NCBI GenBank assembly: GCA_002773795.1
Contig: PFAD01000008.1
Location: 280,696-344,695, forward strand
Source: Chlamydiae bacterium CG10_big_fil_rev_8_21_14_0_10_42_34
GTDB taxonomy: Bacteria; Chlamydiota; Chlamydiia; Chlamydiales; SM23-39
Length of the DNA: 64,000 nt
Direction of reading: 5' to 3'
Positions 33,620 to 40,470 of the stretch are shown here, piece by piece. Within the stretch, counting starts at the first letter, position 1. Each line of letters starts with the position of its first letter. Under the pieces are notes generated by a model. The model saw only the letters and a program-made list of their open reading frames with translations, did not search any database and was not told the DNA's origin. The translations under genes and the position numbers were made by a program.

Positions 33620-34621
33620 ATGAAAGAAACAATCTTAGTAACAGGTGGCGCAGGTTATATTGGCAGCCACACATGCAAGGCTTTAGCAAAGGCTGGATAT
33701 ACTCCCGTAGTTTTCGACAACTTATCCACTGGACATGCATATGCAATAAAGTGGGGCCCGTTTGTTCAAGGAGATCTCTCTGACAAGACAAAGTTGGATG
33801 AGGCCTTTTCAAAGTTTAAGCCCAAAGCTGTCATCCATTTCGCAGCCGATGCTCTCGTTGTTGAATCGATCAATAACCCAGGCAAATATTATCGAAACAA
33901 CATAGCTGGCACGATCTCGTTATTGGAAGCAATGCGCGATCACGAGGTAAAAAAACTCGTTTTTTCTAGTAGCTGCGCAACCTACGGTCAACCTCAATTT
34001 AATCCGATTACTGAAAAACATCCGCAATCCCCTATCAATCCTTATGGGCGCACAAAGCTAATGGCTGAGCAGATATTTGCAGATTTTGAAGCAGCTCATG
34101 CAATTCAAGCGATCAACTTACGCTATTTCAATGCTGCAGGCGCAGATCTTGAGACGCAAATCGGAGAAAACCATGCACCTGAAACGCACCTGATTCCCGT
34201 AGTGATTCAAGCAGCTTTGGGTTTAAGGGAAGAAGTTGTCGTCTACGGGACAGATTTCGAAACAAAAGATGGCAGCGCTGTTCGCGATTACGTCCATGTA
34301 CAGGATTTAGCAAATGCTCACGTATCTGCACTTAAATGTGAAAAAAGCGCTTCGATCAACTTAGGCACAGGTACGGGCCACTCTGTTTTAGAGATCATCG
34401 ACGCCGTGCAAAAATATTGCGGCAAAGAGATTTCTGTTCGTCTAGAAGCGAGACGCTTGGGCGAGCCTGGAATCTTAACTGCAGACAACTCAAAAGCAAA
34501 AGAGCTATTGAACTGGGTGCCAGAAACATCAGACCTACCCACGTTGATTGAATCTGCCTGGAAGTGGCATCAACTCCTATTTGAAAATGCACATCTCGTT
34601 CGTACAGTTTTAAAATGTTAA
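33620..34621 (+). CDS. galE: UDP-glucose 4-epimerase
   Basis: VTGGAGYIGSH and YGRTK (YxxxK). 333 aa. Confidence 0.9.
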   Translation: MKETILVTGGAGYIGSHTCKALAKAGYTPVVFDNLSTGHAYAIKWGPFVQGDLSDKTKLDEAFSKFKPKAVIHFAADALVVESINNPGKYYRNNIAGTISLLEAMRDHEVKKLVFSSSCATYGQPQFNPITEKHPQSPINPYGRTKLMAEQIFADFEAAHAIQAINLRYFNAAGADLETQIGENHAPETHLIPVVIQAALGLREEVVVYGTDFETKDGSAVRDYVHVQDLANAHVSALKCEKSASINLGTGTGHSVLEIIDAVQKYCGKEISVRLEARRLGEPGILTADNSKAKELLNWVPETSDLPTLIESAWKWHQLLFENAHLVRTVLKC

Positions 34622-35139
34622 CTTTAGCCTTTTTACTAGCTACATTTGCTCTCATATTGCAGGGAATTTTCATTCCTAAGATCGCAATTTTAGCCTTTGC
34701 CCCTTTTCTTGCGATCACAACTTTAAAAAGTCCCTTAATTCAAGCCTTAGTGCTCAGTGCTTTTGCGGGAGCTTTTATGGATCTCCTCTCCGACGATCCA
34801 ATGGGGGTTCATGCACTCAACTATGTTACAGTAACAGCACTCCTTTATCGAATTCGGAAACATTTTTCGCATGATGAGGCGCTCCATATCACTTTATTTT
34901 CCGGTATTGTCTCTGTGCTCTCAACATTAATTCAACTTTTCCTCCTTTTTCTTTTTGACAGAAGAGTGCCTTTTGTCGGAAAATGGATTTTTGCCGACCT
35001 TATTGGCATGCCGGTGATCGACGCGCTCTATGCCTTTGTTTGGTTTGCAGCGCCTCTCACTTTAGCTGCTAAGATTCGTCGAACGTGGACATTATTTTGG
35101 TTGAAAAGAAAGAATCCCTTTCCAATATCACGCTCGTAG
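34615..35139 (+). CDS. MreD-like polytopic membrane protein
   Basis: 174 aa with about 5 TM segments. The central AFAGAFMDLLSDDPMGVHAL resembles the MreD signature (G..lDl.s...lG..al). Confidence 0.4.
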   Translation: MLTLAFLLATFALILQGIFIPKIAILAFAPFLAITTLKSPLIQALVLSAFAGAFMDLLSDDPMGVHALNYVTVTALLYRIRKHFSHDEALHITLFSGIVSVLSTLIQLFLLFLFDRRVPFVGKWIFADLIGMPVIDALYAFVWFAAPLTLAAKIRRTWTLFWLKRKNPFPISRS

Positions 35140-35903
35140 CCATCGAAGCTGCATTAGCAGCTGGAGAACTACTGAGACAAGGTTTTGGTACCAATTTTTC
35201 GATTTCTTCCAAAGAAGGGAGACACAACCTCGTCACTGAATATGATCACAAAGCAGAAAAACTAATTCTTGATTTCATCTCTCAAAACGTCCCCAACTCC
35301 CACTTTTTAGCAGAAGAGAGCGGCTTTAGTGGTAAAGATAAAGGGGGCATTTGTTGGATCGTTGACCCCCTTGATGGAACGGTTAATTTTGCCCACCAAA
35401 TTCCCACTTTTGCAGTTAGCATAGCTGCGCAAAGGCAAGGTAAAATCATAAGCGGAGTCATTTTCTTACCCATTACCCACGAGCTATTTGTTGCGGAAAT
35501 TGGTAAGGGAGCATTTCTTAATGGTCAAGAAATACGGGTGTCTCAAGTAAGATCGCTTGAAGAGTCAATTTTAGCAACCGGCTTTCCCTACGATTTAGCG
35601 AAAAATCCATTTCATTGTATCGATCACTTCACCGATATATTAAAAGTGGGCATTCCAATCCGCCGAATGGGCGCCGCAGCAATTGATCTAGCCTATACAG
35701 CAGCAGGGAGATTCGAAGGTTTTTTTGAAGTTGAATTAGCCCCTTGGGATGTTGCCGCAGGAAAATTACTCGTTGAAGAGGCAGGAGGCAAAGTCACAAG
35801 CTGGGATAATACTTTATTTGACATCCATTCGAGGGCAACAATCTTCGCATCAAACGGCCATATTCACAATTCTGTTTCTGCAATTTTAAATAGGACGGTT
35901 TAA
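35085..35903 (+). CDS. suhB: inositol monophosphatase family protein
   Basis: WIVDPLDGTVNF and WDVAAGKLLVEEAGG. The start is uncertain (ATG 35085 or TTG 35097). Confidence 0.85.
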   Translation: MDIILVEKKESLSNITLVAIEAALAAGELLRQGFGTNFSISSKEGRHNLVTEYDHKAEKLILDFISQNVPNSHFLAEESGFSGKDKGGICWIVDPLDGTVNFAHQIPTFAVSIAAQRQGKIISGVIFLPITHELFVAEIGKGAFLNGQEIRVSQVRSLEESILATGFPYDLAKNPFHCIDHFTDILKVGIPIRRMGAAAIDLAYTAAGRFEGFFEVELAPWDVAAGKLLVEEAGGKVTSWDNTLFDIHSRATIFASNGHIHNSVSAILNRTV

Positions 35904-37687
35904 TGTTGATTGATGGGAAAAAAACCGCAAATGAAATCCAAGCAGAAATTAGGTCGCAAATTGGACTCCACAAGACAAGAAAACCGGGTCTTGCTGTCCT
36001 ATTAGTTGGGGATAATCCTGCATCTCATACCTATGTAAAATATAAGAGAAAAGCGTGCGCTGAAGTTGGGATTGTCTCAACAGTCATCGAACTTGCAGGA
36101 AGCATTTCTGAATCAGACCTGTTAAAGCAGATCGAAAAGCTCAATCAAAACCCAGCGGTTGATGGGATTTTAGTTCAACTTCCCCTCCCCTCACACATCG
36201 ATGAAAAAAATATTACTTCCGCAATTGATCCGTTAAAAGACATAGACGGGTTTCACCCGATCAATGTGGGGAAAATGCTTTTAGGTATTGATGATGGGTT
36301 TTTTCCTTGCACCCCATTAGGCATTAAGGTTTTACTCGAAAAGCACAAAATTCCTGTCGAGGGTAAACACATTGTGATCGTGGGGCGAAGCAATATTGTG
36401 GGAAAGCCGTTAGCTGCAATCCTTATGCAAAAAAAGCCCCACTGTAATGCCACCGTCACGGTAGCTCACAGCCAATCTGAAAATTTACAACAACTTACAA
36501 AATCTGCAGACATTCTGATTGCAGCATTGGGACGTCCTCTTTTTATAAAAAAAGAGATGGTTAAGCCCAAATCTACCATTATCGATGTTGGAATCAATCG
36601 TATGCCTAATGGAAAACTGATTGGAGACGTCGATTTTGATGAGGTGAGTAAAGTTGCAGGCCATATAACGCCCGTTCCAGGTGGCATTGGCCCGATGACA
36701 ATTGCAATGCTTTTGCAAAATACATTTAAGGCATTTTTAAAGACGCTTCTCGTACTTTTCCTTTTTGCCTCGTGCAGTCAATCTCCTAAAGATCTCTGCA
36801 CCCATTTTGAAGGGACAGAAATGGCTCGCCCCTATCAAATTACGGTAGGTAAAATCCTTTCAGCGAAAGAAAAGCGACTCGTTGAAAAAGTGATTCAAGA
36901 GACCTTTTTAGATGCACGTACCCTTTTTGACAATAACGATCCAGGCTCTGAAATCTCAAAGTTAAATAGCGCTTCTGCAAACACATTGATTCCCCTCTCT
37001 AAGCCCCTGCAAGACCTATTAACTCTCTGTGATAAAATCGTCTCTTTGAGTGGAGGAAGATTTGACCCAACTGTTGAGCCTTTAGAAAAATTATGGAAAC
37101 AGACACCAAATCCTACTGTAGACGCGCTTCAAAACGCCTGCGATGCTACTGGATGGGAACATATCTGTATCCATAATGGGATCTTCAAAAAAGATCGGCC
37201 TGAGACTGCATTAGATCTGTTAGGAGTTTCAAAAGGACTTTGTGTTGACTGGATTGTTGAAAGACTCGAAAAATTAGGGTTTTCAGACCTGTTAGTCAAA
37301 TGGTCTGGTGAAATTCGAGGAATTGGACACCATCCGGAAAATCGCGATTGGTCTGTTGAAGTAGATCCAAGCTTGAGAGTGAACGAACAGCCCATGGCTC
37401 CACTGCCTTTACGCGATTGCGCAATTTCTACATGTGTAAACCGTGGCTATATGATCGATCCATTAACGGCAAGCCCCTTATACAATAGACGCTCCGAAGC
37501 TTGGAATTTTGAGCGCGCTATCGCGTCGGTTACCGTCATCGCACCCACGTGCGCACTCGCAGATGCATTAGCAACAGCTGCGATGGTTTTCCAAACGCGA
37601 AGTGAAGCTGAAAAATGGGCGCAAGAAATTGTTGATTTATACCCAAACGTAAGCTTTTGGATCTTAAGTCATAGGGATGACAGATGA
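35903..37687 (+). CDS. folD: single 594-codon ORF joining FolD (methylene-THF dehydrogenase/cyclohydrolase) to ApbE (FAD:protein FMN transferase)
   Basis: Residues 1-~275 are FolD (VGDNPASHTYVKYKRKAC, VGRSNIVGKP, PVPGGIGPMTIAMLL). Residues ~265-594 are ApbE (GGRFDPTVEPL, DLLGVSKGLCVD, SVTVIAPTCALADALATA). No stop codon separates the two parts. Confidence 0.85.
   Translation: MLIDGKKTANEIQAEIRSQIGLHKTRKPGLAVLLVGDNPASHTYVKYKRKACAEVGIVSTVIELAGSISESDLLKQIEKLNQNPAVDGILVQLPLPSHIDEKNITSAIDPLKDIDGFHPINVGKMLLGIDDGFFPCTPLGIKVLLEKHKIPVEGKHIVIVGRSNIVGKPLAAILMQKKPHCNATVTVAHSQSENLQQLTKSADILIAALGRPLFIKKEMVKPKSTIIDVGINRMPNGKLIGDVDFDEVSKVAGHITPVPGGIGPMTIAMLLQNTFKAFLKTLLVLFLFASCSQSPKDLCTHFEGTEMARPYQITVGKILSAKEKRLVEKVIQETFLDARTLFDNNDPGSEISKLNSASANTLIPLSKPLQDLLTLCDKIVSLSGGRFDPTVEPLEKLWKQTPNPTVDALQNACDATGWEHICIHNGIFKKDRPETALDLLGVSKGLCVDWIVERLEKLGFSDLLVKWSGEIRGIGHHPENRDWSVEVDPSLRVNEQPMAPLPLRDCAISTCVNRGYMIDPLTASPLYNRRSEAWNFERAIASVTVIAPTCALADALATAAMVFQTRSEAEKWAQEIVDLYPNVSFWILSHRDDR
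36695..37687 (+). CDS. apbE: ApbE moiety, possibly expressed separately as a lipoprotein from an internal in-frame start
   Basis: In-frame ATGs at 36695 and 36707. AGGTGG lies 10 nt upstream of 36695. The peptide M(TIAM)LLQNTFKAFLKTLLVLFLFASC looks like a lipoprotein signal, with Cys at 36773-36775. Confidence 0.5.
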   Translation: MTIAMLLQNTFKAFLKTLLVLFLFASCSQSPKDLCTHFEGTEMARPYQITVGKILSAKEKRLVEKVIQETFLDARTLFDNNDPGSEISKLNSASANTLIPLSKPLQDLLTLCDKIVSLSGGRFDPTVEPLEKLWKQTPNPTVDALQNACDATGWEHICIHNGIFKKDRPETALDLLGVSKGLCVDWIVERLEKLGFSDLLVKWSGEIRGIGHHPENRDWSVEVDPSLRVNEQPMAPLPLRDCAISTCVNRGYMIDPLTASPLYNRRSEAWNFERAIASVTVIAPTCALADALATAAMVFQTRSEAEKWAQEIVDLYPNVSFWILSHRDDR

Positions 37688-38295
37688 TTAAAACGGTCTA
37701 TTTTGATCTCGGAAATGTACTGGTGTTTTTCAGTTTTCCAAAAATGCTTGGACAAATGAGTCGCTGTACAGGCCTTTCTCTAGAGCAAATACAAAAACTT
37801 CTTATTCATACAGAGCTCAGAGAGCAATATGAAAAAGGACTGATTAATACAAAACAGCTTTATGAAACATTTCTCAAGCAAGCCCCTCACCCCTTTACGT
37901 TGCCTGAGTTCACCCATGCATTTTCCGATATTTTCACCCCCAATACAGATCTTTGGCCTTTAATTGAAGATCTTAAGAAAAATGGGATCAGGCTCGTCCT
38001 TTTGTCGAATACATCACAATGCCACTTTGACTTCGCAAAGAAACACTACCCCATTCTCGATGTATTTGATCACAAAGTCCTTTCCTATGAACTCGGCGTA
38101 TGGAAGCCTGATATACAAATATTTGAAAAAGCTCTCATTCATTCCCAATGCCAATTGGATGAATGCTTCTATACCGACGATATCGCAGAATTTATCGAAA
38201 GTGCAAGGAAAGTGGGGCTTCAAGGGGAAATATTTACCGATGTCCCTAAACTAAGACAAGATCTGATCCTTCGAGGCTGTACATTTCTTAAATAG
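37684..38295 (+). CDS. HAD-superfamily hydrolase (subfamily IA)
   Basis: N-terminal VYFDLGNVL, LLSNTS, and a C-terminal DD motif (YTDDIAEF). Confidence 0.7.
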   Translation: MIKTVYFDLGNVLVFFSFPKMLGQMSRCTGLSLEQIQKLLIHTELREQYEKGLINTKQLYETFLKQAPHPFTLPEFTHAFSDIFTPNTDLWPLIEDLKKNGIRLVLLSNTSQCHFDFAKKHYPILDVFDHKVLSYELGVWKPDIQIFEKALIHSQCQLDECFYTDDIAEFIESARKVGLQGEIFTDVPKLRQDLILRGCTFLK

Positions 38296-38340
38296 ATTAA
38301 AACTCTTGTACCATATCTGCCCCTCTTCTATCATGAAGCT

Positions 38341-40470
38341 ATGACCTTTAAAAAACGAAAAGGGAGCTCTAGGCAGCCCAAAGTTGCCTCCAATCTGACA
38401 AGGACCCTCACCCAATATATCCGTGGCAAACGCTATAGCCCGTCATCATTTTCTGAATTAATTACACAACTTGATATTGCAGAAGTTCACAAACCTCTTT
38501 TCAAAGAGATCCTTGATGGCCTCGTCCATAAGGGAGAGCTCGCAATTAAAGCTGAAAAATACGTAATCCCTTCCTCAGCTGAGCTAGTCACAGGCACAAT
38601 TAGTGTCCATAAGAAAGGCTTTGGCTTTGTCCGATGTCCCGTGGGACCTGACGTTTTTGTCCCCAAGCACTGCATGATGAACGCCGTAGATGGAGATACA
38701 GTCGAAGTTGAAGTGAATCCTGTCGTCTCGGCTAAAGGCCCAGAAGGTGTAGTGGTTGCAATCATCAAAAGAAGTCGAACTCACCTAGCTTGCATAATCA
38801 TTGAAAAAACCCAAAGACACTATGTAGCCTATGCTCCTTTGCTCGGGCCTACAAAGCCGGTCAAGATCCTTTCCAAAACTACGCTCAAAAATGGCGATAG
38901 AATCATTTGCAAAGTCCTCGACTGGAAAACAGATGCAGACGTTGTTAAAGGGGAAATGACTCGTCTTATCGGCCATATCTCAGACCCTTCAATCGATGTA
39001 AAAGCAGCCATTGAGGAGTTCGAGCTCCCTGATGGATTTAGCAAAGAGGCGATCAGTGAGGCAAAAGCATGGGGTAAAAAAGTAACCCCTGAAGGGCGAA
39101 AAGACATCACCGATTGGGAAGTTGTGACAATCGACCCCGACACGGCAAAAGACTACGATGATGCAATCTCTCTAACGAAAGATGAAAGGGGCCATTTTTT
39201 CCTCGGTGTTCACATTGCTGATGTGAGTCACTATGTAAAGCCTGCAAGTCATCTAGACCAAGAAGCATTTTTACGATGTAATTCTACCTATTTCCCTGGC
39301 TGCTGTGTTCCGATGCTGCCGGAGGAACTATCGAATGAGCTTTGCAGTTTAAAGCCAAAAGTTGAGAGGTTAACGCAATCTGTTTTTGCCGAGTTTAATC
39401 CTGCTGGGGACTTAGTTAACTACAAAATCGAAAGAGCTTGCATTAAGAGTAAAAAGCGCTTCACCTACAAAGAAGCATTAGCCGTCATTGAGAAAAAGAA
39501 AAAAAGTGTCCATGCGGCCCTGCTTGATCGAATGGTGGAACTTTGCCTACTTCTCAAGAAAAAGCGTTTTGAAAGAGGCAGTATCGACTTTTCAATGCCT
39601 GATGATGTGATCATAGTCGATGATAAAGGCGTTCCTTTAAAAATTGAGCGCGTTGAGTACGATATTACCCATCAAATGATTGAAGAGTTCATGCTCAAAG
39701 CAAATGAAATTACAGCTAAACACCTAGCAGATCAGGGGAAAACCCTCATCTACCGGGTTCATGAAAATCCAACGGAAGAATCGTTTCAAGACTTTTATAC
39801 GTTTGCAAGATCACTTGGATTTCACCTGCCGGCAACACCAACACACCACGACATTCAAAAAATGTTCCTAAATGCAAAAGACTCTCCTTTTTTGCCGCAG
39901 TTATCGGTCAGCTTTATCAGAAGCATGCGTTTGGCCGCCTATTCGTCAGAAAATTTAGGTCACTACGGTCTTGCTTTGGAGCATTATTGCCACTTTACAA
40001 GCCCAATCCGCAGATATACCGACCTCATCATCCAGCGCCTCCTTTTTGACGAGCTGCCACCTGATACAGATGTCGATGCAATTGCAGCTGCCTGCTCTGA
40101 AAAAGAGAGGGTCTCTTTTAAAGCGGAAAGTTCAGTGGTTATATTGAAAAAACTGCGCTTGGCAAATACCCATTTTGAAGCAGACCCAGAAGTCGTTTAT
40201 CCAGCGACCATCACTCGAGTCAAGCCTTTCGCCCTCTTTTTTGAGGTGCCAATGTTTGATCTTGAGGGAAATATTCATGTCTCTAAACTGGGGGGCGATT
40301 ACTATGAGTTCAACCCAAAAAAGATGTCCTTTCGAGGATCTCGCACTGGAAAAACCTTTATTGCAGGCCAGGAAATTTTTGTCCGTCTTGTAAAAATCGA
40401 CTACATCCTTTTACAGTCCGAATGGGCCATTGTTTCCCCGCCGGCGACGAAAGCCAAAAAGAAAAAGTAA
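38341..40470 (+). CDS. rnr: ribonuclease R
   Basis: DPDTAKDYDDAIS, HFTSPIRRYTDLI, and a C-terminal S1-like domain with a Lys-rich tail. Confidence 0.92.
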   Translation: MTFKKRKGSSRQPKVASNLTRTLTQYIRGKRYSPSSFSELITQLDIAEVHKPLFKEILDGLVHKGELAIKAEKYVIPSSAELVTGTISVHKKGFGFVRCPVGPDVFVPKHCMMNAVDGDTVEVEVNPVVSAKGPEGVVVAIIKRSRTHLACIIIEKTQRHYVAYAPLLGPTKPVKILSKTTLKNGDRIICKVLDWKTDADVVKGEMTRLIGHISDPSIDVKAAIEEFELPDGFSKEAISEAKAWGKKVTPEGRKDITDWEVVTIDPDTAKDYDDAISLTKDERGHFFLGVHIADVSHYVKPASHLDQEAFLRCNSTYFPGCCVPMLPEELSNELCSLKPKVERLTQSVFAEFNPAGDLVNYKIERACIKSKKRFTYKEALAVIEKKKKSVHAALLDRMVELCLLLKKKRFERGSIDFSMPDDVIIVDDKGVPLKIERVEYDITHQMIEEFMLKANEITAKHLADQGKTLIYRVHENPTEESFQDFYTFARSLGFHLPATPTHHDIQKMFLNAKDSPFLPQLSVSFIRSMRLAAYSSENLGHYGLALEHYCHFTSPIRRYTDLIIQRLLFDELPPDTDVDAIAAACSEKERVSFKAESSVVILKKLRLANTHFEADPEVVYPATITRVKPFALFFEVPMFDLEGNIHVSKLGGDYYEFNPKKMSFRGSRTGKTFIAGQEIFVRLVKIDYILLQSEWAIVSPPATKAKKKK

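Follow-up and report, generated by a model that had tools for sequence, protein, structure and literature searches.

Within a stretch of 64,000 nucleotides (nt) from the uncultured Chlamydiae bacterium CG10_big_fil_rev_8_21_14_0_10_42_34 (assembly GCA_002773795.1, contig PFAD01000008.1, forward-strand positions 280,696 to 344,695; this whole stretch is here called the window, and coordinates refer to it unless a locus is named), FolD and an ApbE-fold domain are encoded as one polypeptide with a lipoprotein-type signal retained between them. The folD::apbE open reading frame (ORF) lies on the + strand at 35903-37687 and comprises 594 codons from an ATG start to a TGA stop without an internal stop, as the first-pass annotation of this DNA had reported. 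The fusion is real and evolutionarily fixed in a clade of uncultured Chlamydiota. We put at about one in two the probability that the full-length chain is a precursor, the FolD part of which remains inside the cell whilst the ApbE-fold domain is exported via the retained internal signal and is probably lipidated and cut. The wider proposal, advanced tentatively, is of a polyprotein from which the lipoprotein pathway (Sec, Lgt and signal peptidase II) may generate a cytoplasmic, tail-anchored FolD and a periplasmic lipoprotein, an arrangement that would have evolved repeatedly and in which the ApbE domain of the window's own clade (clade A) has lost its catalytic His.

Judged by its sequence the FolD half (aa 1-280; 35903-36742) is complete, with its catalytic residues intact. 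Pfam places THF_DHG_CYH at aa 3-115 (141 bits; profile positions 1-115 of 115) and THF_DHG_CYH_C at aa 118-279 (221 bits; 1-157 of 160), NCBIfam FolD models cover aa 1-281, and in Foldseek searches this half superposes on solved FolDs over the whole length of the latter (~282 columns, TM(target) 0.92-0.96). The residues Y44-x-x-x-K48, Q92 and D115 are present and, in the alignment, near-invariant among fused homologues; they represent the catalytic YxxxK motif and the counterparts of E. coli Q98 and D121. The FolD C-terminal helix PMTIAMLLQNTFKAFLK ends at Lys280, and the junction reads PGGIGPM265TIAM269LLQNTFKAFLK280-TLLVLFLFAS-C291SQS, the FolD helix continuing unbroken into hydrophobic residues and a lipobox. 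The ApbE/Ftp-fold domain follows at aa 292-594 (36776-37684), identified by alignment and by the Pfam ApbE model at aa 310-574 (149.9 bits against a cut-off of 25.6; profile positions 4-256 of 266), with ApbE matches in the PDB at 1e-17 to 1e-18 (2e-18 among them) and an AlphaFold2 (AF2) per-residue confidence (pLDDT) mostly >90 across the domain.

The identical 594-aa protein is found on 8 contigs from at least five independent assemblies or samples, its gene always lying between those for a SuhB-like protein and a HAD-family hydrolase. When 5.8 billion protein clusters were searched for homologues, ~55 were found to combine these three Pfam domains at 42-70% identity; their lengths run from 515 to 632 aa, mostly 570-630, and all of those with a named organism are Chlamydiota. 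At the level of loci, genome and metagenome scans gave 10 fused cases, the metagenome scan adding only one new one (L081), and a further 8 were retrieved by protein. The architecture is rare, since a library of representatives at 50% identity yielded one full-length two-domain representative among the best 150 matches; annotation pipelines label the fused protein as FolD only or as ApbE only, and the ApbE reviews and surveys searched make no mention of a FolD-ApbE fusion. A sequencing or assembly artefact, in which a stop was lost or an indel introduced in this contig, had been raised at first pass as an error at the junction; the identity of the protein across assemblies and the dozens of diverged homologues that keep the same frame refute it for this gene, and its only purchase is on two other fused lineages, P0046 and P0055, each known from a single automated assembly, where an indel error could have produced the fusion.

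The origin of the fusion is visible in the relatives. The ApbE half was scanned against one genome per species, and ~52 chlamydial apbE loci were returned, from Parachlamydiales, Waddliaceae, a Chlamydiaceae metagenome-assembled genome (MAG) and others. In ~45 of the 52, apbE is immediately preceded by folD in the same orientation; eight of these chlamydial loci carry the two in one frame and the remainder carry separate genes. In unfused loci the folD stop and the apbE ATG usually share 4 nt (ATGA), although in some the overlap is 7-17 nt, and the apbE products open with M-K/R, a hydrophobic region (h-region) and a lipobox, for example MRKFLALLLFAAAC and MIRLLLVLLLFASC. The starts of these apbE genes are nearly devoid of a Shine-Dalgarno (SD) sequence (median -1.1 kcal/mol, equal to background), which fits translational coupling by termination-reinitiation. 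The window has no such overlap, and its two domains are not separated by a stop. When junction DNA was aligned, a single 13-nt gap set all ten clade members apart from the unfused sisters L011 and L112; it takes out the last three codons of folD with the stop, and the ATG of apbE with the two codons that follow, and, as 13 = 3n+1, it also repairs the frame offset. FolD Lys280 now occupies the place of the signal peptide's Lys, and the spacing of K + 10 residues + Cys is equal in L011 and the fused clade. Loss of the folD stop, one of the explanations first suggested, is thus supported as the origin of the fusion, the gap falling exactly at the folD/apbE overlap, which measures 4-8 nt in unfused chlamydial relatives. 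The ancestor had adjacent, translationally coupled folD and apbE genes, with the folD stop overlapping the apbE ATG and a classical lipoprotein signal peptide on ApbE; a single 13-bp deletion then fused them, leaving the 10-residue h-region and the lipobox unchanged. One high-GC relative shows how a frame can mislead here: at L009 (2024-3772) a stop-free stretch of 582 aa in the apbE frame runs back through folD, and this locus is a false positive for fusion screens because the FolD motif lies in another frame.

The same fusion arose independently at least three times, possibly five. In a neighbour-joining (NJ) tree of 102 chlamydial ApbE domains the fused clade of the window groups together, with one unfused sequence inside it, whilst the further fused lineages (P0047/49/51, P0050/52/53/54, P0046 and P0055) fall among unfused lineages, and the junction sequence differs in each of them. 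Of these origins, three are each represented by several diverged sequences, the other two being the singletons mentioned above. Where two genes overlap by 4 nt, a single small indel is enough to fuse them. The persistence of such fusions shows that the fused product is viable, and the fusion has been kept through 30-55% sequence divergence. The unfused sequence placed within clade A, L082 (= P0062), keeps the canonical active-site loop, and its placement is either a tree artefact or a secondary separation. At ~1475-1640 this locus has an insert of ~150 nt, with many GCAGAG-like repeats, that separates the overlapping folD stop and apbE ATG from the apbE h-region, and the ApbE product of 387 aa has a long N-terminal extension.

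The internal signal has the elements of a lipoprotein signal peptide. The FolD tail FKAFLK (aa 275-280; 36725-36742, placed by alignment) supplies K276 and K280 as the positive charges of an n-region, and is followed by the h-region TLLVLFLFAS (aa 281-290; 36743-36772, delimited by junction comparison and the AF2 helix) and by the lipobox F-A-S-C (36764-36775, recognized by conservation and the PROSITE core pattern), which ends at Cys291 (36773-36775). The h-region is exactly 10 residues long in the window, as it is in nearly all clade members and in the signal peptide with which ApbE of the unfused sister L011 begins; its median length is 10 aa in fused genes against 11.5 in unfused ones, with no lengthening toward a transmembrane anchor of ~20 aa. 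A basic residue, a short hydrophobic run and [ASG]-Cys occur in all 39 distinct junctions examined, and Cys291 is at least 90% conserved in the alignment of fused homologues. The PROSITE PS51257-type core pattern, {DERK}(6)-[LIVMFWSTAG](2)-[LIVMFYSTAGCQ]-[AGS]-C, fits the window as TLLVLF-LF-A-S-C and is found at the junction in 46/55 fused homologues, with only one match elsewhere in those proteins, well in excess of chance expectation. Whilst the remaining h-region drifts, the Cys and its small neighbours at -1 and -2 stay the same in kind, a pattern that points to selection on the internal signal. A second cysteine, Cys299 (36797-36799, in the motif DPCTHF), lies eight residues past the lipobox Cys; the fused clade shares it with its unfused sisters, whereas in remoter chlamydial ApbEs it is not conserved. 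It could be a disulphide partner or a metal ligand.

An AF2 model built with 39 homologues (pLDDT 93; predicted template modelling score 0.56) has two independently placed domains joined by a single continuous helix, aa 262-291, that includes the h-region. Such a helix is what would be expected of an uncleaved, membrane-tethered 66-kDa bifunctional chain, in which FolD would stay attached to the inner membrane on its cytoplasmic side and ApbE would face the periplasm, a topology that would be that of ordinary N-in/C-out bitopic proteins and that the recurrence of the fusion in several lineages would also suit. We nevertheless regard a permanent tether as rather unlikely. The uncharged stretch extends only 10 residues past Lys280, too short for a helical span of the bilayer, and in no fused lineage has it lengthened relative to unfused signal peptides; moreover, the lipobox Cys and its small neighbours have been kept amid the varying h-region, which a plain anchor would not need.

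The precursor reading places the same elements in a different sequence of events. The 594-aa polypeptide would be the obligatory primary product, since without a stop every ribosome that makes FolD continues into the signal and ApbE. Once FolD has been made, the internal signal would emerge and engage Sec as an N-in/C-out start-transfer sequence, FolD staying in the cytoplasm and the ApbE-like domain being exported; Lgt would then probably attach lipid to Cys291, and signal peptidase II would probably cut the chain, yielding a FolD with a short hydrophobic tail and a mature lipoprotein. Lipidation and cleavage at Cys291 are probable because the lipobox Cys and the short h-region of signal-peptide length are so strictly conserved. 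The first-pass annotation had remarked that the two enzymes act in different compartments and that a signal peptide would not be expected to work in mid-polypeptide. An internal hydrophobic signal after a cytoplasmic domain is, however, the normal topology signal of N-in/C-out bitopic membrane proteins; the chain has the standard layout of that class, and the difference in compartment is therefore no paradox.

The earlier proposal that ApbE is made from an internal in-frame start is unsupported by the comparisons made here. The candidate start region (36679-36709) contains AGGTGG at 36679-36684, in the codons of Pro259-Gly260-Gly261 and 10 nt upstream of the ATG of M265 (36695-36697), and a second candidate ATG, that of M269, at 36707-36709; on rechecking, the positions first given for both ATGs and for AGGTGG were exact. 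If translation began at ATG-265 or ATG-269, a pre-ApbE opening with MTIAMLLQNTFKAFLK or MLLQNTFKAFLK and then the h-region would be the source of exported ApbE and the full-length chain would serve only as FolD. The predicted SD:anti-SD energy at M265 is appreciable (mean -7.2 kcal/mol in fused genes), and the Cys of these products would stand at residue 27 or 23, within the usual lipoprotein range. Their first Lys would stand at residue 12 or 8, however, leaving no K/R among the first 7 residues of either.

The two Met codons and AGGTGG all lie inside PGGxGPMTIAM, a motif common to all FolDs that fixes both the Met codons and GGNGG, so that their conservation is uninformative. A comparison of 18 fused with 65 unfused folD genes, in SD:anti-SD energy, choice of Gly-Gly codons and third-position entropy, gave no signature of selection for a ribosome-binding site. 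SD energy upstream of M265 did not differ (fused mean -7.2, n = 18; unfused -7.7 kcal/mol, n = 65; p = 0.28), and GGAGG was not enriched (3 of 14 clade-A genes against 23 of 65 unfused), seven of the 14, or half, having the weak GGCGG. The first Gly is replaced by Asn in P0050 and P0052 and by His in P0053, destroying the motif, and third codon positions vary freely. M269 has no SD (-2.5 kcal/mol). No promoter-like site was found on the + strand between 35246 and 37062, site counts there being at the level of shuffled sequence, and the ORF contains no terminator or known RNA element and has no Rfam match. Internal initiation as the source of exported ApbE would also leave unexplained the fate of a full-length chain bearing the same hydrophobic signal; an internal start cannot be the whole story because every FolD-making ribosome also yields the full-length protein, and we judge this account unlikely. 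Every folD examined encodes an SD-like GGNGG 10 nt 5' of an in-frame ATG (mean ~-7.5 kcal/mol), and the universal motif Pro-Gly-Gly-x-Gly-Pro-Met would inevitably build a cryptic start site into the 3' end of folD in every lineage.

The description of the ApbE half as a complete FMN-transferase domain holds for the fold and fails for catalytic completeness. His257 of V. cholerae ApbE has been called absolutely conserved, and H257G abolishes flavin transfer (PMC5655446); a review names Ser241, His257 and Asp285, a proposed Asp-Ser-His triad, as the only conserved active-site residues (PMC12052999). We mapped the active site via the canonical chlamydial sister P0067 onto PDB entries 6nxi (wild type, YSHIIDP) and 6nxj (H257G, YSGIIDP). 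The window has Tyr516 at the position of His257 and Cys511 at that of Ser241 (both within 37433-37450), the latter position being variable within the clade, and keeps V. cholerae Asp285 as Asp554. In clade A the His is replaced in ~28 of 36 proteins (P0002-P0045 set) by Q, N, Y, R, G, P or others, and 12-20 residues of the SGDY...YxH active-site loop are missing in all 36, whilst the unfused sisters and the other fused lineages retain both the His and the loop. The remainder of the domain is well conserved in the clade (60-70% identity, with GRFDPT, GHHP and VIAPTCALADALATAA kept), and this conservation, with the high confidence of the predicted structure, argues that the domain is under selection. 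The absence of the canonical catalytic His from the clade-A ApbE-fold domain suggests a changed function. Loss of this supposedly invariant residue in the clade also bears on the proposed mechanism of ApbE.

Two further features of the window's ApbE domain may be recorded here. Asn345 (36935-36937) occupies the position of Tyr60 in E. coli ApbE, at which most relatives carry Trp; Tyr60 stacks on the isoalloxazine, and E. coli ApbE Y60N is a FAD hydrolase (PMC4767422). A private insertion, YNRRSEAWNFER (aa 527-538; 37481-37516), is absent from all other clade members.

The state of the active site could be taken to mean that the ApbE half is a decaying passenger, its flavin-transferase function lost, the domain either not exported or kept for a non-catalytic or structural reason, and the lipobox an eroding relic. 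The replacement of a His whose mutation to Gly inactivates the V. cholerae enzyme, the variable Ser241 position and the deleted loop would all be in keeping with decay, as would the intact His, Ser and loop of the unfused sisters and other fused lineages. The conserved motifs and the retained Asp285 equivalent speak against it, as does a lipobox Cys that stays essentially invariant across the divergence of the clade; together with the AF2 confidence of >90 for the domain, this looks like purifying selection, not decay, and we consider a decaying passenger very unlikely.

Several points nonetheless weigh against the precursor reading. We infer export, lipidation and cleavage alike from sequence, and a literature search brought to light no bacterial case in which signal peptidase II works on an internal lipobox. 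The position rules of the PROSITE lipoprotein entry are violated, since the Cys is residue 291, whereas the rules ask for a Cys at residues 15-35 and a K/R among the first 7. A fused gene also obliges the cell to make an abundant metabolic enzyme and a maturation factor in a 1:1 ratio. An ApbE without its catalytic His may not be a working flavin transferase once exported, which weakens the case that selection for ApbE function maintains the signal. Finally, the cryptic SD-like GGNGG 10 nt upstream of ATG-265 is present, so that some internal initiation may occur.

The fusion lies within a tightly packed operon of overlapping stops and starts at 33620-40470, in the order epimerase, a membrane-like ORF of 174 aa, suhB-like, folD::apbE, HAD hydrolase and RNase R; the order is kept as far as the HAD gene in clade members L170, L171 and L173. 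The ORF list and gene order place an inositol-monophosphatase (SuhB-like) gene upstream (35085-35903, +), the TAA stop of which shares 1 nt with the fusion ATG (TAATG), and a HAD-family hydrolase gene downstream (37684-38295, +), the ATG of which is overlapped by the fusion TGA (ATGA). The ORFs at 34615-35139 and 35085-35903 overlap by 55 nt, which makes the GTG start of the suhB-like gene doubtful; the gene call of one assembly has a later start and a product of 268 aa. Within the 64-kb window there is no second folD or apbE and there are no nqr genes. A separate chlamydial ApbE paralogue lineage (L013, L029, L030, L100 and L115) has no folD neighbour and bears an N-terminal hydrophobic segment without a lipobox Cys; L030 occurs in the same MAG as the folD-linked L041, so some chlamydiae carry two ApbEs.

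Overlapping neighbour genes often fuse, and bitopic membrane proteins are common. What is uncommon is to find a soluble housekeeping enzyme joined to the front of an intact lipoprotein signal peptide, and its repeated independent origin and persistence constitute a natural experiment on an internal type II signal peptide, with a viable outcome. If cleavage occurs, the substrate range of Lgt and LspA would be extended, and a single ORF would offer a compact route to two differently localized proteins. The junction is missed by signal-peptide and lipoprotein predictors because they examine N-termini alone, and surveys of extracytosolic ApbEs that filter on N-terminal signals will misclassify the fused proteins.

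The closest comparison is with the unfused chlamydial pairs (L011, L012, L014, L033, L035 and the Chlamydiaceae MAG L051), which share the genes, their order and strand, and the h-region and lipobox. In those pairs a stop-ATG overlap yields two polypeptides, whereas in the window the 13-nt deletion has removed both signals and left one ORF. In its predicted topology the fusion resembles bitopic N-in/C-out inner-membrane proteins with a large cytoplasmic N-terminal domain, such as ToxR, RseA and PknB-type kinases, which likewise have a cytoplasmic domain, a hydrophobic segment with positive charges on its N-terminal side and an exported C-terminal domain. Their anchors are of ~20 residues and lack a lipobox, whereas the segment in the window is 10 aa, of signal-peptide length, and ends in a conserved lipobox. 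The cytochrome b-c1 precursor FbcH of Bradyrhizobium japonicum, studied by Thony-Meyer and colleagues (1991), is reportedly cleaved at an internal signal, and would likewise represent one bacterial ORF giving two proteins, two neighbouring genes having fused with the signal peptide kept between their products. Its upstream part, however, is said to be a membrane protein and its peptidase of type I, compared with a soluble enzyme, a predicted type II peptidase and putative cleavage here.

The ApbE half belongs to the same fold family as the periplasmic ApbE/Ftp lipoproteins (S. enterica, E. coli and V. cholerae ApbE; T. pallidum Ftp), with which it shares a lipobox Cys immediately before the domain and the Mg-site Asp. 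It differs from them in that its signal is internal, 280 residues from the N-terminus, that other residues stand at the positions of His257 and Ser241, with a shorter loop in between, and that the equivalent of Tyr60 is Asn345 (PMC5655446, PMC4767422). ApbE has also been found within a larger multidomain polypeptide in trypanosomatid fumarate reductase, where the domain is fused to its own flavinylation target (PMC12052999). Both parts of that protein lie in one compartment, whereas FolD carries no flavinylation motif and has no known functional link to ApbE.

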